From NCBI GenBank assembly GCA_014729085.1, contig WJKM01000017.1:1-60978 (forward strand): a DNA stretch of 60,978 nt, read 5' to 3'. This DNA comes from Candidatus Dojkabacteria bacterium. Its GTDB lineage: Bacteria > Patescibacteriota > Dojkabacteria > B142 > WJKM01. This document shows, one piece after another, positions 1-60,651 of the stretch. A program made the translations under genes and the position numbers. The stretch's first letter is position 1; each line of letters opens with the position of its first letter. The notes below the pieces were generated by a model. It ran no database searches. It saw nothing but the letters and a program-made list of their open reading frames with translations, and was not told where the DNA came from.

Positions 1-450
1 GATTCCTGATCAAGTCAGGAATGACATAAAGAAATAAGGCATGACCTCGCCCCTACTTTGCCATTCATGCGTAACGTTGTCATTCCTGCGAAAGCAGGAA
101 TCTCGGCTCTTTTGCCCTCACTTCGTCCCTATGCTTTATACAAGATTCCTGATCATAGTCAGGAATGACATAAAGAAATAGTATGTTAGATTCCTGATCA
201 AGTCAGGAATGACATAAAGGAATAAGGCAGACCTCTCCTCCACTTTGCCATTCATGCGTAACGTTGTCATTCCTGCGAAAGCAGGAATCTCTTCTCTTTT
301 TCCCTCACTTCGTCTCTATACTTTTTTGCAAGATTTCTGAGCATAATCAGGAACGACATAAAGGAATAGTATGTTAGATTCCTGATCAAGTCAGGAATGA
401 CATAAGGAATAGTATGTTAGATCCCTGATCACGGTCAGGAATGACATAAA
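1..450 (+). repeat. Mosaic palindromic repeat array 1, truncated by the window start. It has ~188-bp composite units of hairpin A (ATTCCTGA-N5/6-TCAGGAAT) and hairpin B (ATTCCTGC-GAAA-GCAGGAAT).
   Basis: A copies start at 1, 144, 189, 332 (degenerate), 377 and 420. B hairpins lie at 82-101 and 269-288. The 1->189->377 and 144->332 spacings give a 188-bp period. No ORF of 60 aa or more. Confidence 0.9.
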
Positions 451-489
451 AACGACCTTAGGCCATTCTTCGGTCAAAAGATATATTTA

Positions 490-518
490 TTGCACAATCC
501 CGCGATTTATGCTATATT
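490..518 (+). promoter_or_regulatory. Candidate sigma70-type promoter TTGCAC-N17-TATATT, distal, about 580 nt upstream of the SLH gene
   Basis: TTGCAC at 490-495, a 17-nt spacer, TATATT at 513-518. AT-rich context, so false positives are likely. Confidence 0.3.
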
Positions 519-771
519 TAAAAGATATAAAAAGATCTACTTTATATCTAAGAATAAATTTAAATTTTTCTTAACACTTTTTTCGACACTTGTTATACTA
601 TATATCGTTATTTCAAATGAAGAACCAATAAATTGGTAAACTAGTAAAATTGTGCACAGGTACAATTTTATGTTTTATTGCTCCTTGAAAACTGAATAAC
701 CGCGAAATAAGTTAAAAGGTTTGAACAAAAAAACAAATAAAATACATTTATTATTATTTTAATTGATTGAA

Positions 772-870
772 GGCAGAAGATTTTTTTCTCCCTGACAGTA
801 AGGGAAAACTGCCGGAATCTGGAGTCAAGATCTTATTTTGACCCCAGATATCGGCAGGAATTATTCTGCC
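772..870 (+). promoter_or_regulatory. Highly structured RNA-like element (three-way junction) upstream of the SLH gene. Candidate cis-regulatory leader or small RNA; class not recognised.
   Basis: P1 pairs GGCAGAA (772-778) with TTCTGCC (864-870). P2 is TCCCT-gacagta-AGGGA (789-805). P3 is a 20-position stem at 809-857 with 2 mismatches and 1 G.U. The segment is GC-richer than the surrounding AT-rich spacer. Confidence 0.45.
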
Positions 871-890
871 AAAAGCTAACAATGTAAGGA

Positions 891-918
891 TTGCATCTAT
901 TTATAACTAAAATATATT
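891..918 (+). promoter_or_regulatory. Candidate sigma70-type promoter TTGCAT-N16-TATATT, proximal, about 180 nt upstream of the SLH gene
   Basis: TTGCAT at 891-896 and TATATT at 913-918. It competes with the 490-518 candidate. Confidence 0.3.
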
Positions 919-1098
919 TATTATTAAATAGAGCAAAGAATTCATGTTAGCTTAAAACAATGAGGTAGTACAATTTATCTCATTGTTAGAGCTTCGCAGA
1001 AGCTTAAAATCTGCAAAACAAGTTTCTGGTTCTGTAATTTACATATAATAAATTTTCAGATGCCAGAAAGTATTTAATATATTAATTTAATCAAGCAA

Positions 1099-3720
1099 AT
1101 GAGAAAATTTGCCAAAAAATTAGCAGCTGGTGCTGCAGTGGTAGGGCTTCTAGCCGGATCACTTTCACCAGTTCTAGCAGCTGGCGATCTTCCCATCTAT
1201 CCCGATACACCTCCAGCAAACGGAGCACGAATTTCCGTTACTGATGCACAAGTAGGAGGTGTGGATGACGCATTTGGAGACCTAGAAACTCTCTTTATGG
1301 ACATGAATCTCCAAGACGGGAAATACGAATATGATCTTGGTGTCCTTCCAGTATATGGAAACGACCAGGATGATGAAAATGGTGAAGATAGTTTCAGCAC
1401 ACTACAGGTAGAGTTGGATGACACAGGAACACTCCCTCTAACTGAATATGCATTCATCGCAAAAGATGGATCAAACACAAACAAGCCTGTATACAACATT
1501 ACATCTGTTGTAAACGCTCCTGCAGATCTAACAGTATGTGAATATACTATTGGAGACGACACAATCGAACCAGGTGAAGGTTTCGGAACTAAAGTAGAAA
1601 ACTTTGTTGACGATGCCAAAGATGATGGAGACTGTACAACAGTAGGTTACTTTGACGGTAATGACATCTACGACCCAATGGTCGACGAAGACACACTTAC
1701 CTCAACAGTAAGTATTACAGGAGTATCAGGGAATGTTCACAAAGGTGACCCTGACTACCTACACTACTATTTGGACGAAGTATTTTTCTTCCAAGTAAGA
1801 GATGGTGACGAATATGCATACCGAGCCGATGTTGAACTTGGTGAGGCTATGCAAGACCACTCAACAGAAGGTGTCCAAGGTCTAAGAGCAGTTGCTCGAG
1901 GATCTCGAGGCAGACTAGAGTGGAGAGCACCTGAAGACCCAAGTGGTATTGTCGGATATCAAATCAATCTAGACAATGGAACAGGTGACCAACTAACTCA
2001 CCAAACAGTAGTTTTCTTCGAAACCAATCCAGGAACAGATTATGATGTAGAAGTTGCTACATTAAATGGAGAAGGTGACGAAGGTGTAGTAGAAGAAGCA
2101 AGCGCTGACTCAGAAATCGAAGATATCGACTCTGAATTATCAGACATTGCAGACTACTACTTCAGAGACTACATAAGATACCTATACAATCTTTCAATCA
2201 TCGACGGTTATCCAGATGGAACATACCGAGGTGAAGAGCCAGTTACAAGAGCTCAACTTGCAAAGTTTGTATATAATGGATTCAAACTTCCATTTGACAT
2301 GAGTGCACCAGAATTTCCTGATATTGATACAGGACACTCACTTTACACATACGTTATGCTTCTTGCCTCTAACGGAGTTGTAAAGGGTTACTCAGATGGA
2401 ACTTTCAGACCAGATGAACCAGTTCTTCGACAACAAGCCGCTCTATATTTCTTAAGAGCTGCAACATACTATGACGAAGACGTACTTGATCTTGTTTCAA
2501 GTTGTGGTTTCCCAGACCTAGGCGGACTTGGATCAGAAGCACAAACTGCTGTCTGTACAATTGCAAGCCATGGTGATGGAGACTTCGCACCAATTATGTC
2601 TGGTTACTCCGATGGAAATTTCTATCCAGAAAGAGACCTAACTAGAGGCCAAATGGCAAAAGGTGCCCTTGGTGCTGCATCAACTATTGAAAGAAAAGAT
2701 CTAACAGCTGACGATGATCCTTCTTTCATCAACATTCTACCCGCAGAAGGTCTAGATGAATGTGTAGATGACGATGGAGCAGAACCAAACGTTGTTGGTG
2801 CTGATTACGTAGCACACGGAGCAGATGAAGCTGATACAGACTCATGTCCAGTTGGAACTCCAGATGGTACAGATGACTATCAATTCGACTTTATCCGACC
2901 ATTCTGGGTAACTGCAGAAGTAGAAGACCTGGAAGAGGATGAAGTAAGTACAGCTGGTGTTCAGCTTGCATGGGATGACATGTCAAACGATGATCCATCT
3001 ATCGATGGATACATGGTATACAGACGTGAAGTTATGGAAGACGAAACAGAAGAAGATGTAGCAAACGCTTCATGGGATGTATTAGAAGGTAACTATGGTT
3101 ACGAGCAGTCTGAAACACAGTTAAGTATCGCTGACGGAACTGCAGCAACTGCCGGTTCAATTGAAGTTACAGTTGACGGTAACGAAGTTGAGACAACTCA
3201 ACTTGCAGTTGGAGCAACTGATGATGATGCTGCAAATGCTATTGCAAATGCAATTAACGACATCGATGGATTCACTGCCACAGCAACTGGTGGTGCACCT
3301 TCTACTGTAGATGTTGTAAGTGATGTACGTGGAGTTGACTTCACAGTACAAATCTCTGCAAATCCAACAGGACTTGTAATTGCACCTCCTACAGTAATTG
3401 TAGATGTTGCTACTTCAGCAACAGGGGTACAACTACTTGAAGGTTTCGTTCCAGTAGAAATGGTCGATTATCTTGATGCTAATGGCTATGGAACAGATGT
3501 TCTCGTTACAGATAACGACGTAGATGCAGAAGACAAATACGAGTATAAAGTTGTAACAGTCAAGTTTATTCCGTTCCCATTCTCAGAAACTGATGATTAC
3601 GCAAGCATGAATGCTATGCTTGATGATGTAGTCGGTGATGAGGAAGATACAGCGGAAAATCTTGTCATGTCCAGCGGAATGACTCAAAAGGTTTCTGTAC
3701 CTTCAGAAGAGGAATTATAA
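1099..3720 (+). CDS. Large acidic secreted SLH-domain surface (S-layer-like) protein with FN3-like domains
   Basis: Signal peptide MRKFAKKLAAGAAVVGLLAGSLSPVLAAG. Three SLH repeats: IIDGYPDGTYRGEEPVTRAQLAKF, VVKGYSDGTFRPDEPVLRQQAA and MSGYSDGNFYPERDLTRGQMAK. FN3-like segment LEWRAPEDPSGIVGYQI. The C-terminal module is shared with the 4449-5888 product. Confidence 0.92.
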   Translation: MRKFAKKLAAGAAVVGLLAGSLSPVLAAGDLPIYPDTPPANGARISVTDAQVGGVDDAFGDLETLFMDMNLQDGKYEYDLGVLPVYGNDQDDENGEDSFSTLQVELDDTGTLPLTEYAFIAKDGSNTNKPVYNITSVVNAPADLTVCEYTIGDDTIEPGEGFGTKVENFVDDAKDDGDCTTVGYFDGNDIYDPMVDEDTLTSTVSITGVSGNVHKGDPDYLHYYLDEVFFFQVRDGDEYAYRADVELGEAMQDHSTEGVQGLRAVARGSRGRLEWRAPEDPSGIVGYQINLDNGTGDQLTHQTVVFFETNPGTDYDVEVATLNGEGDEGVVEEASADSEIEDIDSELSDIADYYFRDYIRYLYNLSIIDGYPDGTYRGEEPVTRAQLAKFVYNGFKLPFDMSAPEFPDIDTGHSLYTYVMLLASNGVVKGYSDGTFRPDEPVLRQQAALYFLRAATYYDEDVLDLVSSCGFPDLGGLGSEAQTAVCTIASHGDGDFAPIMSGYSDGNFYPERDLTRGQMAKGALGAASTIERKDLTADDDPSFINILPAEGLDECVDDDGAEPNVVGADYVAHGADEADTDSCPVGTPDGTDDYQFDFIRPFWVTAEVEDLEEDEVSTAGVQLAWDDMSNDDPSIDGYMVYRREVMEDETEEDVANASWDVLEGNYGYEQSETQLSIADGTAATAGSIEVTVDGNEVETTQLAVGATDDDAANAIANAINDIDGFTATATGGAPSTVDVVSDVRGVDFTVQISANPTGLVIAPPTVIVDVATSATGVQLLEGFVPVEMVDYLDANGYGTDVLVTDNDVDAEDKYEYKVVTVKFIPFPFSETDDYASMNAMLDDVVGDEEDTAENLVMSSGMTQKVSVPSEEEL

Positions 3721-3752
3721 GCTAAGGCTTGATAATACTCTTTGAAACGAAA

Positions 3753-3781
3753 AAGACCCCCATTCCCGGGGGTCTTTTTTT
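3753..3781 (+). terminator. Rho-independent terminator after the SLH gene
   Basis: AAGACCCCC (3753-3761), loop ATTCCC, GGGGGTCTT (3768-3776), followed by a T-run. Confidence 0.85.
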
Positions 3782-3854
3782 ATAGATATATAGAAGGACT
3801 TGTCTCGGTTTATGTCATTTCTCTTCTTTTTTATCATTCTAAAACCAAAAAAGT

Positions 3855-4345
3855 TGTCATTCCTGCGTAACGTTGTCTTTCCTACGAAAGCAGGAATCTC
3901 GGCTCTTTTATTCCCACTTCGTCCCTATACTTTTATATAAGATTCCTGATCAAGTCAGGAATGACATAAAGGAATAGTATGTTAGATTCCTGATCACAGT
4001 CAGGAATGACATAAAGGAATATGGCATGACCTCTCCCTCATTTTGTCATTCCTGCGTAAGGTTGTCATTCCTGCGGAAGCAGGAATCTCTTCTCTTTTTC
4101 CCTCACTTCGTCCCTATACTTTTATATAAGATTCCTGATCACAGTCAGGAATGACATAAGGAATAGTATGTTAGATTCCTGATCAAGTCAGGAATGACAT
4201 AAAGGAATAAGGCATGACCTCTCCTTCACTTTTCCATTCCTGCGTAACGTTGTCATTCCTGCGAAAGCAGGAATCTCTTTTATTTTACTCCCACTTCGTC
4301 CCTATACTTTTATACAAGATCCCTGATCACAGTCAGGATCACATA
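3855..4345 (+). repeat. Mosaic palindromic repeat array 2, same units and orientation as array 1
   Basis: A copies start at 3941, 3985, 4130, 4174 and 4318 (degenerate). B hairpins lie near 3877-3897 (degenerate), at 4067-4086 (GGAA loop) and at 4255-4274 (GAAA loop). The period is 188-189 bp. Confidence 0.92.
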
Positions 4346-4407
4346 AGAGAGAGGTATTAAAAGATAGAAGAACCGCCTTTCCCTGTACCCTACTTCTTTA
4401 TCCCCTT

Positions 4408-4416
4408 TGCTATAAT
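4408..4416 (+). promoter_or_regulatory. Candidate extended -10 promoter element TGcTATAAT for the second SLH gene
   Basis: TGC at 4408-4410 and TATAAT at 4411-4416. There is no good -35. This placement favours the ATG at 4449 over the ORF-track start at 4419. Confidence 0.4.
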
Positions 4417-4448
4417 AAATGTGTATCTATTTATTACTACTAATTATT

Positions 4449-5888
4449 ATGAAGAAAATACTTACTCTTACTGCTTTATTAATATTATTTTTAACATTTT
4501 GCTCTTCACAGGTGTTTGCTGAATACAGAAACAGTGTTTCATTTGAGGATATTGTAAATCACGAGAACCAGCACCATATTACTTATCTTTATAAACTAGG
4601 ACTTATAGACGGCTATTCTGATGGAACTTTTAGGCCGGACAATACAGTTACAAGAGGAGAATTTGCAAAATTTATAAAAAATGTCTTTCAAGTACCTGAT
4701 AATCTTGATGGAGAAACATTTCCTGATGTCCCAGAAGATCATTGTTTTTTCCAGCATATTCATTCCTTAAAAAATGCTGGAATCATACACGGTTTTTCAG
4801 ACGGAGAATATAAACCTGAGCGCCCAATAACCAAAGGAGAGGCTACAAAAATAATATTCAATTCCGCAAAACACAAAGATCCGAATGTAATTTTCGAGTC
4901 CGAAAGCTGTTTATTTTCTGATATTGAAACCAATGAATTTAAAGGTTTTATATGCGGACTTGTAAACTATACCGAAGACGGATTTGAAAAAATCATTGAT
5001 AATTCTAATTCCAAATTTAATCCTGAAGAAAATATTACAAGAGGACTGGTTGCAAGATGGACATTAAATGCCGGTTCGTATATTCCAAAAACGACCGAAT
5101 TTGAATACGATAAATTCATTGAATTCACAGGTTGGACAAATAATTTTATCCGCCCTGTTCCAGTTAACAAATTTAGAGCAATTGCACTTTCAAACGGCAT
5201 TGAACTTAGTTGGGATGATTTTGTGAATAAAAATATTGATGATAGTATCGATGGATACGTATTAATGAAAAAAGACGGATCTGATTTCGAGCCGATTGAC
5301 CATGTTAATGGACTCGGGGCAACTGCACAGGAAGAGGAACTGGAAGTTTATGGAACAATTGAAGCAGGAGATGAGTATAAAGTTTTTGTAAACAATGATA
5401 ATGAATACTCTTATACCGTTCAAGCTGGGGATACATTGGAATCTGTGGCCGATTCTATCTCGAATCTAATTGACCAAGATGATGCAATCTCTACGCTCAT
5501 CAAGAATTCCGATCCAGACGAGATTATTATAACTTCTTCTATTGCAGGAGTTGAATTTGATATCGATGCTTATGCAATAAACGGTGGTGCTTCTAACAAC
5601 CAGGGTTTTAATCAAGAAGAACTTGTAGAAAATGATATGGGCACATCTATTGAATTTGGAGTAGTACTAACAGGAGATATACCAGGTGAAAAGGGACTAT
5701 ATTCAGATTTAACAGTAAGGGATGATCGAATGTATTATTATAAAATCGCTGCTTTTAAATTCATCCCAAAGGAGCTTTCCAGCGGTGATTACAATACTCA
5801 ACTCGAGTTGGAAAATGATCTGCAAAATCAAGACAACATGATAATAGGACCTTGGGAGGAAATAAGCATAGAAACTCCCGAGAATTAA
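4449..5888 (+). CDS. Secreted SLH-domain surface protein, paralog of the 1099-3720 C-terminal module
   Basis: From the internal Met there is a signal peptide MKKILTLTALLILFLTFCSSQVFA. SLH repeats LIDGYSDGTFRPDNTVTRGEFAKF and IIHGFSDGEYKPERPITKGEATK. The C-terminal FIRP...W(D)D...DDSIDGY...YYYKIAAFKFIP parallels FIRP...AWDD...DPSIDGY...YEYKVVTVKFIP in gene 1. The maximal ORF starts at 4419. Confidence 0.9.
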   Translation: MKKILTLTALLILFLTFCSSQVFAEYRNSVSFEDIVNHENQHHITYLYKLGLIDGYSDGTFRPDNTVTRGEFAKFIKNVFQVPDNLDGETFPDVPEDHCFFQHIHSLKNAGIIHGFSDGEYKPERPITKGEATKIIFNSAKHKDPNVIFESESCLFSDIETNEFKGFICGLVNYTEDGFEKIIDNSNSKFNPEENITRGLVARWTLNAGSYIPKTTEFEYDKFIEFTGWTNNFIRPVPVNKFRAIALSNGIELSWDDFVNKNIDDSIDGYVLMKKDGSDFEPIDHVNGLGATAQEEELEVYGTIEAGDEYKVFVNNDNEYSYTVQAGDTLESVADSISNLIDQDDAISTLIKNSDPDEIIITSSIAGVEFDIDAYAINGGASNNQGFNQEELVENDMGTSIEFGVVLTGDIPGEKGLYSDLTVRDDRMYYYKIAAFKFIPKELSSGDYNTQLELENDLQNQDNMIIGPWEEISIETPEN

Positions 5889-5927
5889 AATTCTAAATTC
5901 AGGGGGCTTTAAGTGGATTTATAAGTT

Positions 5928-6385
5928 TTCCTATGCTTTTATACAAGATTCCTGATCACAGTCAGGAATGACTTAAGGGAATAGTATGCTAGATTCCTGA
6001 TCACGGTCAGGAATGACTTAAGGGAATAAGGCATGACCTCTCCCCCACATTGTCATTCCTGCGTAACGTTGTCATTCCTGCGGAAGCAGGAATCTCTTTT
6101 CTTTTACTCCCACTTCGTCCCTATACTTTATACACAAGATTCCTGATCAAGTCAGGAATGACATAAAGGAATATGGCATGACCTCTCCTCCACTTTGTCA
6201 TTCCTGCGAAAGCAGGAATCTCTTTTCTTTTGCCCTTGCTTCGTCCCTATACTTTTATACAAGATTCCTGATCACAGTCAGGAATGACATAAGGGAATAG
6301 TATGCTAGATTCCTGATCACAGTCAGGAATGACATAAGGGAATAGTATGTTAGATTCCTCATCATAGCCAGGAATAACATAAAGA
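5928..6385 (+). repeat. Mosaic palindromic repeat array 3, same units and orientation
   Basis: A copies start at 5947, 5992, 6138, 6263, 6308 and 6353 (degenerate). B hairpins lie at 6074-6093 (GGAA loop) and 6200-6219 (GAAA loop; short B variant lacking the first core copy). Confidence 0.92.
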
Positions 6386-6487
6386 TAGCTGTCTCAATAA
6401 TTATGAATTACAAAAACTATTCTTTTCTAAACAAAATCAGAATTTTTCAATGTTATAATGGATTTTGAAATTTAAAACAAATAATAT

Positions 6488-7363
6488 ATGAATAAGCCCA
6501 TAAGAAAAGGCCTAAAACTAATTCAACAATTAGGAATTGATAATTTGGTCGTGAATATCTCTAAAACTAAGGTCTTTAAAAATTTTATTCTTAAAAATTT
6601 TTGGGACACAACAACACCTCAAACATATTTCAAGCAATATAAGGCATTTGATGAACTTCTCAGTGAATACAAAATTCAAATAAATAACAAAACAATACTG
6701 GAAATTGGTTCGGGAAATTCCATAGGTATGGGTTATTATTTTTATAAAGATGGATATAAACTTTGGGTTGCTTCAGATAATTATCGAAATCCCCAAAAAA
6801 ACAAGAAACTGTCTAAAAAAGAAATGGAAATCGCACAGGATGCAGTATCACGATTTGGAAATGAACTTTTGAAGGATATATCAATCGAGAATGATACTAT
6901 TCAATATAATGGTAAATTAGACTTTATAAACTTAGATATTGGGAAACAAGAACAGAAATTAATGAACAAATTTGATCTAATCTTTTCTAATGCCGTCTTG
7001 GAACACATTGAACGTAAGTCAATGCTGGATTCGTTTAAAAATATGGCTTTATACTTAAAAAATGGAGGTTATATGATTCATAGGGTTGATCTTCGGGATC
7101 ATATCAATGTTGCTAATCCTTTCAATTTCTACAAATATTCAACACCAGAATGGGAAAAAACTACAAAGGGATCTATTTTTTACACAAATAGACTAAGAGT
7201 TTCAGATTACCTAAAAATAATCAAAAAAAACAAATTAATACTAATAGATATGGTAACAAAGGAAACAGGACTTCCAAAAAAAATACATCCATCTTTAACA
7301 GATAAATACGATAAAAATGACTTATCAAAATACTCCCTTACCTTGATAATCAAAAAAGCATGA
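6488..7363 (+). CDS. Class I SAM-dependent methyltransferase
   Basis: Motif I-like ILEIGSGNSIGMG and post-I/II acidic residues. The stop TGA overlaps the next start (ATGA). Confidence 0.75.
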   Translation: MNKPIRKGLKLIQQLGIDNLVVNISKTKVFKNFILKNFWDTTTPQTYFKQYKAFDELLSEYKIQINNKTILEIGSGNSIGMGYYFYKDGYKLWVASDNYRNPQKNKKLSKKEMEIAQDAVSRFGNELLKDISIENDTIQYNGKLDFINLDIGKQEQKLMNKFDLIFSNAVLEHIERKSMLDSFKNMALYLKNGGYMIHRVDLRDHINVANPFNFYKYSTPEWEKTTKGSIFYTNRLRVSDYLKIIKKNKLILIDMVTKETGLPKKIHPSLTDKYDKNDLSKYSLTLIIKKA

Positions 7364-9138
7364 AAACCAAAGAAAAGAAAAAACAATTTTTAAAGAACAC
7401 GCTATTTTTTATTTTGCTTATTTTTTCATATGCAATAATAGGCATAATTTTTACCTATCCCCTTATTAAAGTATTTAATACGCATGTTCCAAACAATTAT
7501 TTTCAGGAAGCAGAACACACTAACGACTGGGGAGACCATGTGCAAGTTATAGGTGGGTTTCTGGAACATAAGAAAACAATTATAAATTTTTTTACAAATA
7601 AACCAATATATGAGAAAGAATTCTGCTTTAGCGAAATTGAATACTGCCAAGTTGGAAAAGGTACAGATATATCGACTGGATGGATTCTTAAGAAAATTAT
7701 TTTTTCAGCATATTGGGGTCAAACTGCTCTAAACTTTGTTTTTGATCCAATAGTAACTAACAATCTTTGGATTATTCTAAGTTTTGTATTAAGCGGTGTA
7801 ACTGCTTTTTTATTTGCAAGATTGTTTACTAAATCCAATACAATTGCCTTTATTGCTTCACTTTTCCCTGTCATTGGACCTGGAAGAATACATCATCTGC
7901 TTGTGGGACATAGAAATGGTTGGCTTCTTTATCTTTTTATTATTATTCTATTTTTGGTGGAAACAGAAGTAAGGAAAAAATTAAAAGGCGGTTTGAGATA
8001 CACCATCTGGCTATTCATTTCCGGTATTATGGTATATTTCAGCTTTGTTGAACCTTTTTATCTTATGTATGGTTTAATTTTTCTATTTTCTAGAATAGCC
8101 TGGAACGATCTCTTCGAAAAGAAAATATTCATAAATTTAAAATCGAAAATTCTTCCTACGATAACAAGATATCTATGGTTAGTATTCACCCTTGCCTCAG
8201 CATGGATGGCAACAAAATGGCATAGAGCCAGTAAACTTCAGGAATCGATTTTGGCTGAAGGTGGTAGAACCCTAGAAGAAATAACTAGATATTCTCCAGA
8301 ACTTAAACTCTTTTGGACGAGAAATATATACGATCATGAACTTAATATTTATATAGGAATTGGAATTGTCATTATAATCACTGCAGTATTTCTAGTCTGG
8401 TTTATGAAAAGTAGACAGAAACAAAGAATGAGTTATTACTTACTTTTTGGAATCTTATTATTAATACTTTCCCTTGGGATAAATACCCCTGTCTATGAAT
8501 TTCTATACAAAAATGTTCCTATGTTTAATCTATCTCGAACTCCTTCGAGAGCAATCATTCATTTTTTACCTATCCTGACAGCAATAACTGCAATTCTCTT
8601 TAACTATCTCAAGAGATTAACAATTAATAATAAAATCAAATCAAATCTGTTGCAATTTATTATATTCTTAGTGATTACTACTTCCATAATTATTTCTCTT
8701 TATAATTTCAAATCAATAAGCCTGGCAAGACTTCCAGATCTGGAAGTAGATTCAATTGAACCACAAGATAAAATACTATACCTGCCTATTACTCATGGAG
8801 GACACTTTTTTACAACCATCTATGAATACAATCTAGCCTATCTTGATGCTGTTGCAATAAATGGCGATCATCCATATGAACCTCTTGCTTTTCATAATTT
8901 TTATGCAGAATATGGTGTGCCCTTAAATGCCGGATGGGTCAACACACAAGAATTAAATAAGATAATTGAAGATTATCATATTACGAAAATAATAGTTTTC
9001 AAGGATTACTATAATAACCCCAAAATTGAGTTTGTACCTGAGGAAACAGAAATTAATGATGTAAAAACTATGCTTAATTCATCTAAAGCGAATATTATTG
9101 AAGAAGATGAAGATTTCATCATTTACTCAATTAAATAA
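7360..9138 (+). CDS. Polytopic membrane protein, possible GT-C-fold glycosyltransferase (function uncertain)
   Basis: 592 aa with about 12 or more hydrophobic helices and a C-terminal soluble domain. Translationally coupled to the methyltransferase by a 4-nt overlap. Confidence 0.7.
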   Translation: MKTKEKKKQFLKNTLFFILLIFSYAIIGIIFTYPLIKVFNTHVPNNYFQEAEHTNDWGDHVQVIGGFLEHKKTIINFFTNKPIYEKEFCFSEIEYCQVGKGTDISTGWILKKIIFSAYWGQTALNFVFDPIVTNNLWIILSFVLSGVTAFLFARLFTKSNTIAFIASLFPVIGPGRIHHLLVGHRNGWLLYLFIIILFLVETEVRKKLKGGLRYTIWLFISGIMVYFSFVEPFYLMYGLIFLFSRIAWNDLFEKKIFINLKSKILPTITRYLWLVFTLASAWMATKWHRASKLQESILAEGGRTLEEITRYSPELKLFWTRNIYDHELNIYIGIGIVIIITAVFLVWFMKSRQKQRMSYYLLFGILLLILSLGINTPVYEFLYKNVPMFNLSRTPSRAIIHFLPILTAITAILFNYLKRLTINNKIKSNLLQFIIFLVITTSIIISLYNFKSISLARLPDLEVDSIEPQDKILYLPITHGGHFFTTIYEYNLAYLDAVAINGDHPYEPLAFHNFYAEYGVPLNAGWVNTQELNKIIEDYHITKIIVFKDYYNNPKIEFVPEETEINDVKTMLNSSKANIIEEDEDFIIYSIK

Positions 9139-9271: not shown

Positions 9272-10195
9272 CTATTCTGAGGTTTCTGATTCACTTTCCT
9301 CTATGAATTCTTCCATCTCTACATCTTCCGAATTTTCTAAGCTTCTATTAGAAATAGAGACTAAAATATCCGTTACATCTTCATTAACAAGTTTATTTAC
9401 TTTCTTGAAATTTTCGTAGATTTCTTTATTGCTGTATTTGGTCAAACCGTCTCGAGTATCAAAATATATTTCTCTTGCTTCATTGATAATATCTTCAAGC
9501 TGTTGTGATTCTTCTTCAGTTGCTTGAGGCCTAATTGCTAAGGAGTCTTCTTCGGCGTATCCAATATCCTTCATATTTTTTCTCAATAATTTTTGGAATA
9601 ATTCTCTGGCATATTGATCAAATTTATCGCTTTTAGTAATATTTTCTACTCCAAATTCAAAAAGATCGTTGACAAAAACATCGGTTGCAATAATTCCTTC
9701 CTGAATTACTTCCTTTGACTCTGCATTCTGCTCCTTTGCCTCTTTATATTGTGCTTTCAAAGTCCTAACAAAGGATTCTGCGTATAGCTGAGTTAAATCC
9801 AAATAAGTATCTGTCAAAATATCTTCGTCAACCCCCTCCTCATGCATTTGACCAAGATATCCCTTCATATTATCTAGATTTTCCTTATATTCTGTTATTA
9901 TTCTTTCAGTAGCATTCTTGTCGTATTTCACAACACGAAGTTCTTCCATCCTTTCCTGGGCAAGTTTGATCTCAAAATCTAGCTTTGATTGAGTACTATT
10001 TTTTAAATTGGCCTGTAAACTCTCGATACCCCTATCTGCAAAATAAAGCTTATTATTTGGTGTTGCATTATTACCAAGATAAAGAGCAAGTATTATTAAT
10101 AAAATAATTGTTCCTAAAATGTAATAAGGTATGTATTTCTTGTTTTTTTGTATTTTTGACATGATTTTTGGTTTTTTTCTATTTTTTTTAGCCAT
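9272..10195 (-). CDS. Hypothetical N-terminally membrane-anchored acidic helical protein
   Basis: One TM segment (YYILGTIILLIILALYL) followed by a helical E/K-rich region. No motif recognised. Confidence 0.7.
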   Translation of the reverse strand: MAKKNRKKPKIMSKIQKNKKYIPYYILGTIILLIILALYLGNNATPNNKLYFADRGIESLQANLKNSTQSKLDFEIKLAQERMEELRVVKYDKNATERIITEYKENLDNMKGYLGQMHEEGVDEDILTDTYLDLTQLYAESFVRTLKAQYKEAKEQNAESKEVIQEGIIATDVFVNDLFEFGVENITKSDKFDQYARELFQKLLRKNMKDIGYAEEDSLAIRPQATEEESQQLEDIINEAREIYFDTRDGLTKYSNKEIYENFKKVNKLVNEDVTDILVSISNRSLENSEDVEMEEFIEESESETSE

Positions 10196-10270: not shown

Positions 10271-12088
10271 TTAAACGTTATCTTCAAAATATTTTCTGGA
10301 CAAATCAATCATCTTAGCCATTTCCGCTCTAGTTGCATCATTTGAGGGCTTAAAGTTTCCATCTGAATATCCTTTAATAATCCTTTCACCTTCATATTCA
10401 CTATTGGTTAAGAAAGCAATATACTGATAAAAAACACTGGTATCATCAACATCTGGAAAAGCTTCATGATACTGTGCCCAGTTAATTACCATTCCTCTTT
10501 TCTGCATAGTTAATGATATAAATTTTGTTATTTGGTCTCTCTTTACAGCAGCTTCGGCTCTATAAGTACCATCCGAATATCCTGAAACTATACCCATATT
10601 ACAAAGTATTAATATATTTTCGCGGTGAACATGATCAACAGGCAGATCAGCAAAACAATATTTTTCGATAGTGGTATTTAGATCAAATGCTCGAACAATG
10701 AAGCTTGCCATCTCTCCTCTAGAAACTGGATAATCCGGTCTGTATGTTCCGTCACTGTAACCTTTAACAATTCCGTCATTATATAAATTAATAATATATT
10801 CCCGTAAAGGATTGTACTCAATATCAGGGAAAACATCTTCATACCCCTCCCCTGCTCCCGCAAAAACGTCCTTTTGGTCTGTAACTGGTCCTTCACTATC
10901 AAGATAACTAACAACAACTGTATCTCCCTCCTGTACATAAAGATATCCATTATTATCAGCATTATGAGCCTGGTCATCTGTTGTTCTAAAAGCACCTTCA
11001 AATATTGCACTTCCATCTTCTGTCTCGATTAGGGAAAATGTTTCAATCTCACCTGTTGTCATATTTAAAGCCTCTCCTTCTACTTCATCCTCAATACCTC
11101 CATGAGTATTTGCATCATTATCGGTTAATTTAACATCTATTAAATCGACCTCATAAATAGCTGAATCTGTTATATCTATACTTGCTGTTGTTGTGTTTGT
11201 TTTAATATCAATATCTACAGTTTGAGGATCACTTTCCAAATCCCCATCATTTACTGTAATGCTAACATGTCTGTCTTCGATATCTGGAGCTGTACGTGTA
11301 TTATTATATGTCAATGTTCTAAGGACTTTCTGGTAATTTGCTATTGCATCAAGTTCAGAAAGAGTAAGCGTAAAAGTATTTGCATCATATTCCATTTCAA
11401 TATCAGTTCCTGTTACATCAATACTAATATATTCATCCAGTAAATCGGGATGATTATCAAGTGTTATTGTTGCACCTTCTAATTCTGTGTCATCTGAATC
11501 AGCAACTGTTAAATCGGGATCAATAATTACAGGAAAACTTCCTTGATAAAAATGCGTTTGTTCATCTCCATTTAGTTTAATTTCTGGTGCATCATTAACA
11601 GAAATGATATTAATATCTGTATCATCTGCATCGCTGTTCGAATCGTCATATACCGTAATCTCTATGGTCCGGTTGCGATCATCAGGTTCATCCTCCTTAT
11701 TATCGTAAGTTAAGGTTTCAATGACCTGCTGAAAATTTGCCGGCGTATCAGGTCCTGTTAAATATAGAATGCCTTCTTGATCATCAAAATCTTTAGTTAT
11801 ACTTGTTCCAGTTATTGTGGCATCTAATACTTCATCCTTTCCATCCATTCTATAATGAAGTTCGATTGTAGCAGAATTCAATGAGCCGTCCGTATCGGTA
11901 ATTGTAACTCCCGATGCTACTAGTACGGGTCCTCCATCTTCGGTGAAATTTGGTGTTATACCCGGAAGTGTTATTGTCGGAGCTGCCGCTGAAACCTTTG
12001 GTATTAATGGAGATACAATCAAAGCTATCATTGTGAAAATAAGAAGTTTTGAAAGATGTTTATGAATATTAGTAACCATTTTATGCAA
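10271..12088 (-). CDS. Secreted surface protein with cadherin-like repeats and three C-terminal SLH repeats
   Basis: Signal peptide. Repeated modules end in SVNDAPEI and contain LTYDN/LTYNN-type motifs. SLH repeats IVKGYSDGTYRPDYPVSRGEMASF, IVSGYSDGTYRAEAAVKRDQITKF and IIKGYSDGNFKPSNDATRAEMAKM. Confidence 0.9.
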   Translation of the reverse strand: MHKMVTNIHKHLSKLLIFTMIALIVSPLIPKVSAAAPTITLPGITPNFTEDGGPVLVASGVTITDTDGSLNSATIELHYRMDGKDEVLDATITGTSITKDFDDQEGILYLTGPDTPANFQQVIETLTYDNKEDEPDDRNRTIEITVYDDSNSDADDTDINIISVNDAPEIKLNGDEQTHFYQGSFPVIIDPDLTVADSDDTELEGATITLDNHPDLLDEYISIDVTGTDIEMEYDANTFTLTLSELDAIANYQKVLRTLTYNNTRTAPDIEDRHVSITVNDGDLESDPQTVDIDIKTNTTTASIDITDSAIYEVDLIDVKLTDNDANTHGGIEDEVEGEALNMTTGEIETFSLIETEDGSAIFEGAFRTTDDQAHNADNNGYLYVQEGDTVVVSYLDSEGPVTDQKDVFAGAGEGYEDVFPDIEYNPLREYIINLYNDGIVKGYSDGTYRPDYPVSRGEMASFIVRAFDLNTTIEKYCFADLPVDHVHRENILILCNMGIVSGYSDGTYRAEAAVKRDQITKFISLTMQKRGMVINWAQYHEAFPDVDDTSVFYQYIAFLTNSEYEGERIIKGYSDGNFKPSNDATRAEMAKMIDLSRKYFEDNV

Positions 12089-19964: not shown

Positions 19965-20948
19965 TTAAATTAAAAATAAATAATTCTTGCCTGGCATCTT
20001 CTTTTTTCCTTGCATCTGTACTTTAGTAAGTTCTAGAGCACCATCTCCAGTTTTAACAAATAATCTTTTTTTATGTTTGAATAACTCACCAATTTGAAAT
20101 TTATTATATCTCTCGGATGCAATTATTGTTTTTATTTCAGCTGGATCCAATAATGATTTGTAGACTTTTAGTACTTTTCCATGGAATTGTTCATTAGAAG
20201 TATTCTGCTCATCCAATTCGAACCAAGCTACGGGCCAAGGATATAAAGCTCTTACCATTCTTTCTATTTCATCTGATGTTTTATTCCAATCGATTTCTGC
20301 ATTCTCCTTAGAAATATCACTAATAAAACAATATGTTGCCTTTGCATGATCTTGTTTTCGAGGTGAAATGTTTCCATCTAACCAGTCTGGTAATATTTCT
20401 TCTAGTAAATTCGCACCTTCTATACTTGCTTTTTTCGTTAATGAGTCTGTCGTATCAGTTTCTTGTATTGGAAATTTCTTAGTTGCGATTATATCTCCTA
20501 CGTCCATTTCTTTTTCCATAACTTGAATCGTAACACCAGTTTCAGAAAATCCTCTCCAAATTGAAATTGGTATTGGAACAGCTCCACGCAGTTTTGGGAG
20601 TAGTGAAACATGAATATTTAAACATTTATATTTTGGATAATTTAATATTTTTTCAGGAATAAATTGACCATATGATGCAACAATAACTAATTCCGGTGTA
20701 GTTTCTGCTAGAATCGTATCAGCAGTTTGTGTTATATTTTCTGGTTGGAAAATTTGAGAAGATTCTTGTTTACTTTTTAGGTACAATTTTACTGGCGGTG
20801 GAGAAATTTTCTGATTTCGACCTACTGGTCTATCAGGTTGCGTAACTACGCCTGCTACATTTATATATTCCAAACTAAATAATTTTTCAATTATTGGGAC
20901 TGCAAATTCAGAAGTTCCAATAAACAATGTATTAATTGTTTTTAACAT
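19965..20948 (-). CDS. fmt: Methionyl-tRNA formyltransferase
   Basis: LFIGTSEFAVP, VVTQPDRPVGR and NIHVSLLPKLRGAVPI motifs, plus a C-terminal Fmt domain. Confidence 0.93.
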   Translation of the reverse strand: MLKTINTLFIGTSEFAVPIIEKLFSLEYINVAGVVTQPDRPVGRNQKISPPPVKLYLKSKQESSQIFQPENITQTADTILAETTPELVIVASYGQFIPEKILNYPKYKCLNIHVSLLPKLRGAVPIPISIWRGFSETGVTIQVMEKEMDVGDIIATKKFPIQETDTTDSLTKKASIEGANLLEEILPDWLDGNISPRKQDHAKATYCFISDISKENAEIDWNKTSDEIERMVRALYPWPVAWFELDEQNTSNEQFHGKVLKVYKSLLDPAEIKTIIASERYNKFQIGELFKHKKRLFVKTGDGALELTKVQMQGKKKMPGKNYLFLI

Positions 20949-27803: not shown

Positions 27804-27855
27804 ATAAAAAAATAGGGAAATTTAAAATCAATTTTATTGATATTAAATTTCCCTA
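27804..27855 (-). terminator. Rho-independent terminator downstream of tRNA-Lys
   Basis: A 14-bp perfect inverted repeat, ATAGGGAAATTTAA (27812-27825) with TTAAATTTCCCTAT (27843-27856). On the minus strand it is followed by T7 (A-run at 27805-27811). Confidence 0.75.
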
Positions 27856-27927
27856 TGAGTTGGGGGGGACTCGAACCCCCAACCAATGGCTTAAAAGGCC
27901 ACTGCTCTACCATTGAGCTACCAACCC
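27856..27927 (-). tRNA. tRNA-Lys (anticodon UUU)
   Basis: Hand-folded 72-nt cloverleaf: acceptor GGGTTGG/CCAACTC, anticodon stem GTGGC/GCCAT, loop CTTTTAA, T-arm GGGGG-TTCGAGT-CCCCC. No encoded CCA. Confidence 0.9.
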
Positions 27928-27939
27928 ATCTACAAAATA

Positions 27940-29300: not shown

Positions 29301-29906
29301 TTATTCCTTTTCTTCTTTTTCTTCTTCTGACTTATCCTCTTTCTTATCTTCCGTCTCATCCTCTTTTTTTTCTTGAGTATCCCCTTCCTTTTTTTCGGTT
29401 TCTTTAGTTCCTTTGTTCTCTTTCTTTGTATCTTCTTTCTTTTCACTATCTTCACCTTCAGGTTGTTCTTGTTGAGAATCTTCTTTTTCTTGCTTTTCAG
29501 TGTCTGGATCGCTCTGTTCTTCTTCATAATATATAATATCCTCTACTTCTTTTCCGCTTTCCCCCACTTTCATAGCCTTTTTACCAATTCTTCCACGCAT
29601 ATAATATATTTTTGATTTTTTAACTTTTCCTTTCTTTAAAATTTCCACTTTTTCAACATTTGGAGAATGTACAGGAAATATTTTTTCCACTCCAACTCCT
29701 TGTGAGATTTTTCGTACAGTTATTGTCTTTCTTACACCTGAACCTTTTTGAGAAATAATCAAACCTCGGTACGACTGACTTCTTCGTTTTTCCCCCTTGT
29801 CATCCCTAATTGCTGATGTAACTTTAACAGTATCTCCTACTTCGAAATTTGGGAGACTCTTTTTCATGTACTCTTTTTCTACTTTTTCATAAATATTTGT
29901 ATCCAT
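29301..29906 (-). CDS. rplS: 50S ribosomal protein L19 with a long acidic/lysine-rich C-terminal extension
   Basis: The L19 core is LPNFEVGDTVKV...RRSQSYRGLIISQKGSG...TVRKIS.GVGVEKIFPVHSP...YYMRGR. The start is taken at the Met of MDTNIYEK; the maximal ORF starts at 29963. Confidence 0.9.
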   Translation of the reverse strand: MDTNIYEKVEKEYMKKSLPNFEVGDTVKVTSAIRDDKGEKRRSQSYRGLIISQKGSGVRKTITVRKISQGVGVEKIFPVHSPNVEKVEILKKGKVKKSKIYYMRGRIGKKAMKVGESGKEVEDIIYYEEEQSDPDTEKQEKEDSQQEQPEGEDSEKKEDTKKENKGTKETEKKEGDTQEKKEDETEDKKEDKSEEEKEEKE

Positions 29907-29980
29907 AATATTTCCAATTAATAAAAACTTAATGATTTTACCATTCAGAAGATAAAGACACAAGATTTATTTAAATCTAT

Positions 29981-58073: not shown

Positions 58074-58273
58074 AAGTCCTTAACGTAAATATTTTATTAT
58101 TTGCTTTCCAAGTTTATTCCTAGCTATTCTATATTAATATCAATAAAAGATTGTCTACCCAGCTTTCTTAGAATTTATTAGCCTTATTATTCATCAACAT
58201 TTATAGAATATAAATTCAGATGACCAAAGAATTATCTAATCGAACCTCCTAATTAACATAAAAAGAGGCTGAG

Positions 58274-58347
58274 CGGGACCAAGCGGGCTCGAACCGCCAA
58301 CCTCTCGCGTGACAGGCGAGTGCTCTAGCCAATTGAGCTATGATCCC
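58274..58347 (-). tRNA. tRNA-Asp (anticodon GUC)
   Basis: Hand-folded: acceptor GGGATCA/TGGTCCC, anticodon stem CTCGC/GCGAG, loop CTGTCAC, T-loop TTCGAGC. No encoded CCA. Confidence 0.88.
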
Positions 58348-58474
58348 GCTCAGCCTCTATGTCTGAGCGTACTATTCTGTTTTCAAATAACTATTTCGCT
58401 CAACAATTTTATCAAAAATTGTTCAAATAATCGACTTTTTCCCCAATTTTCTATTCTATATGCTTTTCAGTATA

Positions 58475-58558
58475 TGCTGACGAGAGGATTTGAACCTCCA
58501 CAGGATTTCTCCCACTACCCCCTCAAGGTAGCGCGTCTACCGATTCCGCCACGTCAGC
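58475..58558 (-). tRNA. tRNA-Leu (anticodon GAG), long variable arm
   Basis: Acceptor GCTGACG/CGTCAGC, anticodon stem CTACC/GGTAG, loop TTGAGGG, a variable arm of about 15 nt and T-loop TTCAAAT. Confidence 0.88.
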
Positions 58559-58622
58559 GAAGTATCTCTAGATAACTCTTACCTTCCATTACTCAGGCTA
58601 ATACAGAATAATTAACTAAAAA

Positions 58623-58696
58623 ATGCATCTGGAGGGACTCGAACCCCCAACCTGCGGTTCCGAAGACCGACGCTCTATCCAATTGAGCTACAGATG
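58623..58696 (-). tRNA. tRNA-Arg (anticodon UCG)
   Basis: Acceptor GCATCTG/CAGATGC, anticodon loop CTTCGGA with one mismatched closing pair in the stem, T-loop TTCGAGT. Confidence 0.8.
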
Positions 58697-58741
58697 CAGG
58701 AACTTTAATTATCAATTATACCAAATAGAAAGGAGAGATAA

Positions 58742-60580: not shown

Positions 60581-60651
60581 AGCGAGGTACGAGACTCGAA
60601 CTCGCGTCGTCTCCTTGGGAAGGAGATGTACTACCCCTGTACTAACCTCGC
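60581..60651 (-). tRNA. tRNA-Gly (anticodon CCC)
   Basis: Acceptor GCGAGGT/ACCTCGC, anticodon stem TCTCC/GGAGA, loop TTCCCAA, T-loop TTCGAGT. 71 nt, no CCA. Confidence 0.88.

Follow-up and report, generated by a model that had tools for sequence, protein, structure and literature searches.

NTS/dRS3-like hairpin arrays around an old pair of SLH surface-protein genes in a Candidatus Dojkabacteria contig

In a contig of Candidatus Dojkabacteria bacterium (GenBank assembly GCA_014729085.1, contig WJKM01000017.1), three intergenic arrays of short palindromes surround two neighboring genes that encode SLH-domain surface proteins. We analyzed the entire contig, 60,978 nt, which we call the window. 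By their sequence, the palindromes appear to belong to the NTS/dRS3 (Ssn-type) class of DNA hairpins, which in Neisseria are bound and cut by a small GIY-YIG nuclease, and identical hairpins flank genes for such nucleases in other genomes. The gene pair is older than the arrays. Taking class and function together, we put the probability at roughly 55% that these are mosaic Ssn-type hairpin arrays that modulate recombination with incoming single-stranded DNA (ssDNA).

The Ssn nuclease family was described in 2025 (PMC11893778). The Neisseria protein SsnA (94 aa) has a single domain, GIY-YIG (cd10448), and both binds and cleaves the NTS, CGTCATTCCCGCGMAVGCGGGAATCYRG, which contains the dRS3 palindrome ATTCCC-N8-GGGAAT (PMC11893778). 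SsnA cleaves only ssDNA, on one strand and upstream of the hairpin, and deletion of ssnA results in ~5-fold more transformation with NTS-bearing DNA (PMC11893778). NTS copies are almost never intragenic, their clusters adjoin membrane and host-interaction genes, and ssn genes typically lie between their own hairpins (NTS-ssn-NTS) (PMC11893778). Motifs that fit the SRM pattern, HGTCWYN(0-2)YYVSBRHN(0-5)WNVSBRGN(0-2)RNCYNB, and Ssn homologues are spread over bacterial phyla (PMC11893778). In NIME arrays, dRS3 inverted repeats lie between RS elements (19-214 bp) in intergenic DNA; these arrays associate with divergent surface-protein genes and were proposed to promote exchange of the genes they flank (PMC1797815). 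In 2007, NIME arrays were stated to be unseen outside Neisseria (PMC1797815).

Results

One hairpin motif in two orientations makes up three arrays

A repeat search and Tandem Repeats Finder resolved three arrays, all in direct orientation, which enclose exactly two genes, here called the long and the short SLH gene (Table 1). Both the co-oriented mosaic arrays and the two bracketed genes had been described in a first-pass annotation made from the letters alone. Tandem Repeats Finder reported a period of 188 nt in array 1 (positions 1-411, 2.2 copies, 91% matches) and in array 2 (3854-4347, 2.6 copies, 90% matches), and periods of 126 nt and 45 nt in array 3 (6069-6382). Position 1 falls within array 1. 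Since the window is the entire contig, the assembly break genuinely lies inside this array, as the annotation had suspected; the far contig end (60978) is outside any hairpin array.

The pattern ATTCCTG-N(4-10)-CAGGAAT has 19 exact matches, all between positions 2 and 6330 (0 expected, 100 shuffles); the contig has no further match over its other 54 kb. Counting degenerate copies, our module map contains 24 hairpins, all of them intergenic and clustered. Seventeen (4 degenerate) are of the form AGATTCCTGATCA(C)AGTCAGGAATGACATAA, which we call H1, and 7 (1 degenerate) are H2, which is TTGTCATTCCTGCGAAAGCAGGAATCTC in the module map and TGTCATTCCTGCGAAAGCAGGAATCTC with its flanks. On the minus strand, H1 reads TGTCATTCCTGACTGTGATCAGGAATCT; this reverse complement retains the H2 flanks (TGTCATTCCTG...CAGGAATCT) and outer stem, and differs in the inner pair and loop. 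Thus, the arrays consist of one motif in two orientations. TGTCAT lies 5′ of every H2, and of every H1 read on the minus strand, and the palindromes (20-22 bp) have the orienting flanks GTCAT...ATC.

Three linkers recur between the hairpins: 22-23 nt from H1 to H1, 58-59 nt from H1 to H2 (40 nt in one unit) and 43-45 nt from H2 to H1. Mean identity between composite units is 84% (75-90% across pairs, mostly 85-90%), and exact stretches of 37-53 bp are common to different arrays. As unit identity was 0.84 both within and between arrays, we rejected array-specific concerted evolution. A 19-nt copy of the left half of H2 (GTCATTCCTGCGTAACGTT) precedes 6 of the 7 H2 copies (e.g., at 4045-4063) and is absent at 6160-6199; the unit that lacks it accounts for the 126-nt instead of the 188-nt period. 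The copy may have arisen by slippage or nested insertion, or as a footprint of cleavage and repair.

Table 1. Positions of the arrays, their hairpin cores, the SLH genes and associated signals in the window
Feature	Position	Strand	Details
Array 1	1-450	+	Truncated by contig start; order H1 H2 H1 H1 H2 H1* H1 H1* (asterisk, degenerate)
Array 1 cores	2-22, 82-101, 145-166, 190-210, 269-288, 333-354, 378-398, 421-442
Array 2	3854-4347	+	Half-site, H2*, H1, H1, H2, H1, H1, H2, H1* (asterisk, degenerate)
Array 2 cores	3878-3897 (degenerate), 3942-3962, 3986-4007, 4067-4086, 4131-4152, 4175-4195, 4255-4274, 4318-4339 (degenerate)
Array 3	5928-6385	+	Order H1 H1 H2 H1 H2 H1 H1 H1* (asterisk, degenerate)
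Array 3 cores	5948-5969, 5993-6014, 6074-6093, 6139-6159, 6200-6219, 6264-6285, 6309-6330, 6354-6375 (degenerate)
Promoter block of long SLH gene	556-624	+	Promoter-like site at 571-599: TTAACA, 17-nt spacer, TATACT preceded by TG
Leader of long SLH gene	600-1098	+	~500 nt; predicted RNA minimum free energy -137.9 kcal/mol, z -8.5
Long SLH gene	1099-3720	+	873 aa; signal-peptide-like N-terminus, fn3, three SLH stretches, C-terminal module
Terminator-like hairpin of long SLH gene	3755-3782	+	GACCCCC-ATTCCC-GGGGGTC, then T7; read from sequence; upstream of array 2
Extended -10 of short SLH gene	4408-4416	+	TGcTATAAT; read from sequence; between array 2 and probable start 4449
Short SLH gene	4449-5888	+	479 aa from ATG 4449 (489 aa from mechanical open reading frame start 4419); SLH stretches, C-terminal module
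Third SLH-domain gene	10271-12088	-	605 aa; SLH C-terminal; adjoins DUF5667 gene

The hairpins resemble the Neisseria NTS

The first-pass annotation did not recognize the repeat unit as a known element, but the core of this unit is a hairpin of the NTS/dRS3 type. Relative to the NTS, H2 has a compensatory change of one stem pair (C:G to T:A) and a few changed flanking bases; flanks and stem are otherwise nearly identical (GTCATTCC-GCG-AAA-GC-GGAATC). Relaxing only the covarying pair of positions in the SRM pattern yielded 4 H2 matches where 0.12 were expected; written with T:A and 8-10 central bases, dRS3 matched 20 cores in the window. In both the NTS and the window motif, an upstream GTCA orients a predicted ssDNA hairpin. 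Predicted ssDNA folds were -7.8 kcal/mol for H2 (z -4.5) and -6.2 to -6.5 kcal/mol for H1 (z -3.4 to -3.6), compared with -9.0 kcal/mol for the Neisseria NTS that served as control. The NTS and the window motif are both strictly intergenic and cluster around membrane- or surface-protein genes.

The window hairpins also differ from the NTS. Apart from the T:A stem pair, the inner stem and loop of H1 are distinct, the 61 kb contain no ssn gene, and the window hairpins are putative cleavage targets. The host also differs, being a candidate-phyla (Dojkabacteria-like) lineage; the word Patescibacteria is absent from the main text of PMC11893778. A literature search for the exact hairpin, or for peptides translated from it, found only the Neisseria form. 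On balance, the array hairpins appear to be members of the NTS/dRS3 (Ssn-type) class, and we hold this assignment much more firmly than the combined functional reading.

Identical hairpins accompany ssn genes in many phyla

We found the exact 26-nt H2 sequence in >117 stretches (a lower bound) of GTDB representative genomes from many phyla, including Bacteroidota, Alphaproteobacteria, Rickettsiales, Dehalococcoidia and metagenome-assembled genomes (MAGs) of the candidate phyla Kuenenbacteria, Peribacteria and Paceibacterota. H1 occurs in at least 120 metagenome stretches. The window shares only ~30 nt with the H2-bearing GTDB loci: sequence outside the hairpin motif is not conserved, and a second, inverted hairpin often lies 15-40 nt downstream. 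A linker-specific 21-mer had 0 matches in JGI metagenomes, and the H2 hairpin was absent from IMG/VR.

We compared 237 hairpin-anchored loci among the matches listed. With phmmer run on all open reading frames (ORFs), at least 12 of these 237 proved to encode a small GIY-YIG homologue of Ssn. In loci L016, L019, L030, L006, L215, L125 and L067, the ssn gene is immediately between or beside H1/H2 hairpins identical to those of the window. Thus, the very hairpins that form the arrays flank ssn genes elsewhere. In L215 (31% GC) and in L240-L242 (27-29% GC), H1, linker and an NTS-type hairpin follow one another in the order seen in the window, and do so on both sides of ssn. The ssn genes and flanking hairpins of L240 (10001-10294), L241 (10001-10294) and L242 (4245-4538) are within loci for glycan and cell-envelope biosynthesis. 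Close Ssn variants (86-90% identical) are found mainly on very short contigs, which is what multi-copy elements would produce by breaking assemblies. The Ssn family is very large: 6871 of the candidates scored matched at E up to 1e-25.

Hairpin neighbors also include ordinary genes. In low-GC contigs other than ours, the hairpins bracket each member of the ABC-transporter operon of L183, both halves of transketolase in L241 and L131, and genes for glycosyltransferases and oxidoreductases; apart from ours, no hairpin locus among the 237 listed carries an SLH gene. The annotation had asked if the unit is restricted to SLH loci, and had named scatter over unrelated intergenic sites, with no enrichment at surface-protein genes, as the observation that would count against its proposal. 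Within 61 kb the hairpins do occur only around the SLH pair. Scatter of nearly that kind is what we found, in a comparison that covered other genomes.

This dispersal at unrelated intergenic sites would also be expected of selfish or neutral repeats with no local function, which were seeded once near the SLH genes and then spread to neighboring spacers. We consider this a serious alternative, albeit on the unlikely side. Consistent with it, the terminal copies of every array are degenerate, the equal similarity of units within and between arrays fits a single recent burst, and the hairpin-ssn-hairpin layout resembles an insertion sequence (PMC11893778). However, only the three spacers of the SLH pair are occupied in 61 kb, while six further spacers of ≥250 bp carry no hairpins, and Neisseria NTS copies cluster non-randomly beside membrane-protein genes (PMC11893778, PMC1797815).

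The SLH gene pair predates the arrays

The long and short SLH proteins are 25.5% identical over 494 residues (E ~1e-40), an alignment that includes the C-terminal module outside the SLH domains; the annotation had called this shared module correctly. Exact copies of the window proteins are not on record, and a protein cluster search found no homologues of the long protein past its SLH domains. The 592-aa membrane protein encoded downstream of array 3 has only two homologues. One is in L118, a Candidatus Dojkabacteria MAG, and the other in L119, a 239-kb JGI contig of a Dojkabacteria-like relative; both loci share synteny with the window.

In L118, a long (840 aa) and a short (482 aa) SLH gene have the order and orientation of the window pair. 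These genes are 196 bp apart, and the spacer contains only a terminator and no array. The long proteins of the window and L118 are 36% identical over 879 aa (474 bits) and the short proteins 36% identical over 458 aa (280 bits), while long and short proteins in any combination are 25-31% identical (143-189 bits). Since long-long and short-short matches exceed long-short matches, the duplication predates the split of these lineages. In L119, the orthologue of the long protein is 691 aa. None of the H1/H2 hairpins is present in L118 or L119. Because array-free L118 retains the pair, the pair is old and has been stable, and the arrays came late. The composite units average 84% identity, in contrast to 25.5% amino-acid identity for the paralogues that they flank. 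Judged by these comparisons, then, the arrays represent recent additions to an old gene pair rather than remnants of the duplication. That these relatives manage without hairpins would also fit the selfish or neutral explanation.

We also noted that the spacers of the syntenic L119 locus contain a different family of mosaic intergenic repeats, with units of 33-90 nt that include GTGTCATCCTGAGTTTATCGAAGGAC-type motifs (445-588, 2559-2727, 4149-4237, 7187-7444, 7940-8167, 9574-9966 and 20392-20450). These repeats fill many spacers, including both sides of the L119 SLH gene.

The annotation had viewed the arrays as recombination substrates and the layout as a built-in way for the surface protein to vary in copy number or identity. 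In this explanation, the arrays are a selected device whose co-oriented copies of ~0.45 kb delete, duplicate or swap the SLH cassettes. Recombination between arrays is physically possible, given the exact 37-53 bp that they share, and NIME arrays provide a precedent (PMC1797815). The bracketing of exactly two paralogous surface-protein genes, the contig break inside array 1 and a RecX gene in the window (identified by Pfam), which implies RecA-dependent recombination, point the same way. In addition, a comparison of the window (1-9138) with L118 (5198-11692) shows inversion or translocation of the SLH pair with respect to the 592-aa gene, with breakpoints at arrays 1 and 3; as the comparison involves three distant genomes, the coincidence may be due to chance.

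Nevertheless, the sequence data give no evidence of shuffling, and built-in variation was not supported, as L118 keeps the pair without arrays. Long and short orthologues in the same order in so distant a relative count against cassettes that come and go, and paralogues only 25.5% identical would make a swap something other than allelic variation. No silent or extra cassettes were seen; the third SLH gene of the window has only SLH domains in common with the other two and no flanking hairpins. The same hairpin clusters bracket housekeeping genes in other contigs, and the sole activity shown experimentally for the class, SsnA cleavage of incoming ssDNA, lowers replacement of hairpin-flanked DNA (PMC11893778). 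Thus, we consider a selected shuffling device quite improbable. Array-to-array deletion or duplication is possible as a by-product of arrays that are not dedicated to it.

Each SLH gene appears to have its own transcription signals

Inspection of the sequence suggests that both SLH genes keep their own promoter, and the long gene also its own terminator, within the array-bounded segment, and that the arrays lie outside both transcription units. Over 70 nt, the promoter block of the long gene shares 83% identity with the sequence 5′ of the orthologous SLH gene of L119. As this block is downstream of array 1, array 1 is outside the transcription unit. An equivalent of the terminator-like hairpin that follows the long gene lies between the two SLH genes of L118. 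The leader of the long gene (Table 1) has a predicted stem of ~20 bp around 811-866, and its motif CTTTGAAAACTGAATA is conserved with L118.

We also weighed a transcriptional role like that of BIMEs, in which the hairpins would act as terminators, insulators or mRNA-stabilizing stem-loops that isolate a very highly expressed S-layer gene. On the coding strand, 5 of the 7 H2 copies are terminator-like (an 8-bp stem followed by CTCTTTTCTT), 10 terminator-like sites were found where 3.5 were expected, and no other obvious terminator lies between the short SLH gene and array 3. However, the long gene has a canonical terminator upstream of array 2, array 1 is upstream of a promoter, and most hairpins (the 17 H1 copies) lack T-tails. 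In addition, SsnA does not bind its motif as RNA in vitro (PMC11893778), and a search of positions 1-7000 against Rfam (E up to 1) returned only sub-threshold chance matches. We regard a transcriptional role as very unlikely.

The long SLH gene has 42% G+C, compared with 31% for the contig. We rejected horizontal transfer as the cause: G+C at third codon positions (GC3) is 0.26, like that in the remainder of the contig, and it is the first positions (GC1 0.63) that carry the excess, reflecting an acidic, Gly/Ala-rich protein. The L118 orthologue shares this pattern, and we saw no signal of transfer.

The arrays compared with other repeat systems

The architecture resembles that of NIME arrays. 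The window has 24 palindromes (in the T:A variant) and linkers of 22-59 nt in three types, all of them intergenic. Like NIME arrays, its arrays combine 20-bp-type palindromes with short recurrent spacer families over several hundred bp, adjoin surface-protein genes (here the two SLH genes) and flank these genes on both sides. They differ in having three linker families with a regular 188-nt period, whereas Neisseria has >100 RS families.

REP, BIME and REPIN elements share with the arrays extragenic palindromes that alternate in orientation and form mosaic clusters with other motifs. As in REPINs, an inverted H1-H2 pair can fold as one long hairpin (-18.1 kcal/mol predicted). We nonetheless rejected a REP/BIME system with a RAYT, since Pfam detected no RAYT gene in the window and the head is GTCA rather than GTAG-type. 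Moreover, the gene beside the hairpins in other genomes encodes a GIY-YIG nuclease and not an IS200/IS605-like tyrosine transposase.

Our Pfam scans covered all window ORFs of ≥90 aa plus the small ORFs of the spacers. They detected no recombinase, integrase or transposase in the 61 kb, in agreement with the annotation. An integron cassette array was rejected because there is no integrase, both genes have promoter-like sites, and the repeats are multi-copy perfect palindromes in arrays rather than one attC per cassette. A CRISPR array was rejected because the linkers themselves recur within and between arrays, and a miniature inverted-repeat transposable element because no unit is bounded by terminal inverted repeats or target-site duplications.

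Other genes of the contig

The contig has a G+C content of ~31% and is a low-GC cell-envelope locus. Pfam matches identified genes for a Wzt/ABC-2 exporter, GT1, GT2 and GT4 glycosyltransferases, PMT_2 proteins, a DUF5667 protein and Lgt. Ribosomal protein L19 and RNase HII are also encoded. In our analysis, the placement among Dojkabacteria is based on protein homologues that are 34-39% identical and on synteny with one named Dojkabacteria MAG (L118). For the 220-aa ORF at 29301-29963 (minus strand), the Pfam L19 match is restricted to residues 24-130. A 24-nt tandem repeat (2.8 copies, 29307-29374) at its 3′ end suggests a repetitive C-terminal tail. The contig also carries a tRNA cluster (Asp-GTC, Leu-GAG and Arg-TCG, 58273-58698) and single genes for tRNA-Lys and tRNA-Gly at 27855-27928 and 60581-60651.

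Discussion

A model that we favor is that the hairpins are dispersed repeats which move together with small GIY-YIG Ssn nucleases acting on ssDNA, and that they have built up recently in the three spacers of an old, stable S-layer-type gene pair. The cognate Ssn would be encoded elsewhere in the genome, and the hairpins would have spread with it. When DNA of the locus is single-stranded, for example during uptake, Ssn could cut beside the hairpins. As the motif is present in both orientations, either strand could be cut, at many sites flanking each gene. By analogy with Neisseria, such cutting may modulate how the S-layer genes recombine with incoming DNA.

Several observations weigh against this model. 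A motif scan and Pfam revealed no GIY-YIG ssn gene in the 61-kb window. The literal dRS3, NTS and SRM patterns have 0 matches in the window, a failure that is due to the single covarying stem pair (C:G to T:A). The 188-nt composite unit, for which the annotation had recommended a wider search, is absent from all 237 listed hairpin-anchored loci, in which the best matches are stretches of up to ~128 nt at 71-83% identity. The G+C wave of NIME arrays, with peaks at dRS3 and troughs at RS elements, is lacking, as G+C is 0.42 in hairpin cores and 0.40 in linkers. Since L118 and L119 have no hairpins, any hairpin function is dispensable.

A more far-reaching version is that the lineage has independently built a Neisseria-style system, in which NIME-like arrays let a GIY-YIG ssDNA nuclease control the replacement of S-layer genes by incoming DNA. 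We consider it rather unlikely. If true, it would mean regulated exchange of surface proteins by DNA uptake in a lineage that is thought to be heavily uptake-dependent.

Taken alone, the locus is a further instance of a known repeat class, without evidence of cassette variation. New here are the compensatory stem variant, the regular 188-nt composite period, the candidate-phyla host and the S-layer genes. The published SRM search pattern misses real variants such as the T:A stem form. NIME arrays have been described as peculiar to Neisseria, and Ssn and the NTS were characterized only in 2025, mostly in Pseudomonadati. If our favored model is correct, the pattern of hairpin, gene and hairpin around surface proteins would extend to a very distant, candidate-phyla lineage. 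The locus offers a concrete test case for whether hairpin arrays restrict or promote the exchange of surface genes.

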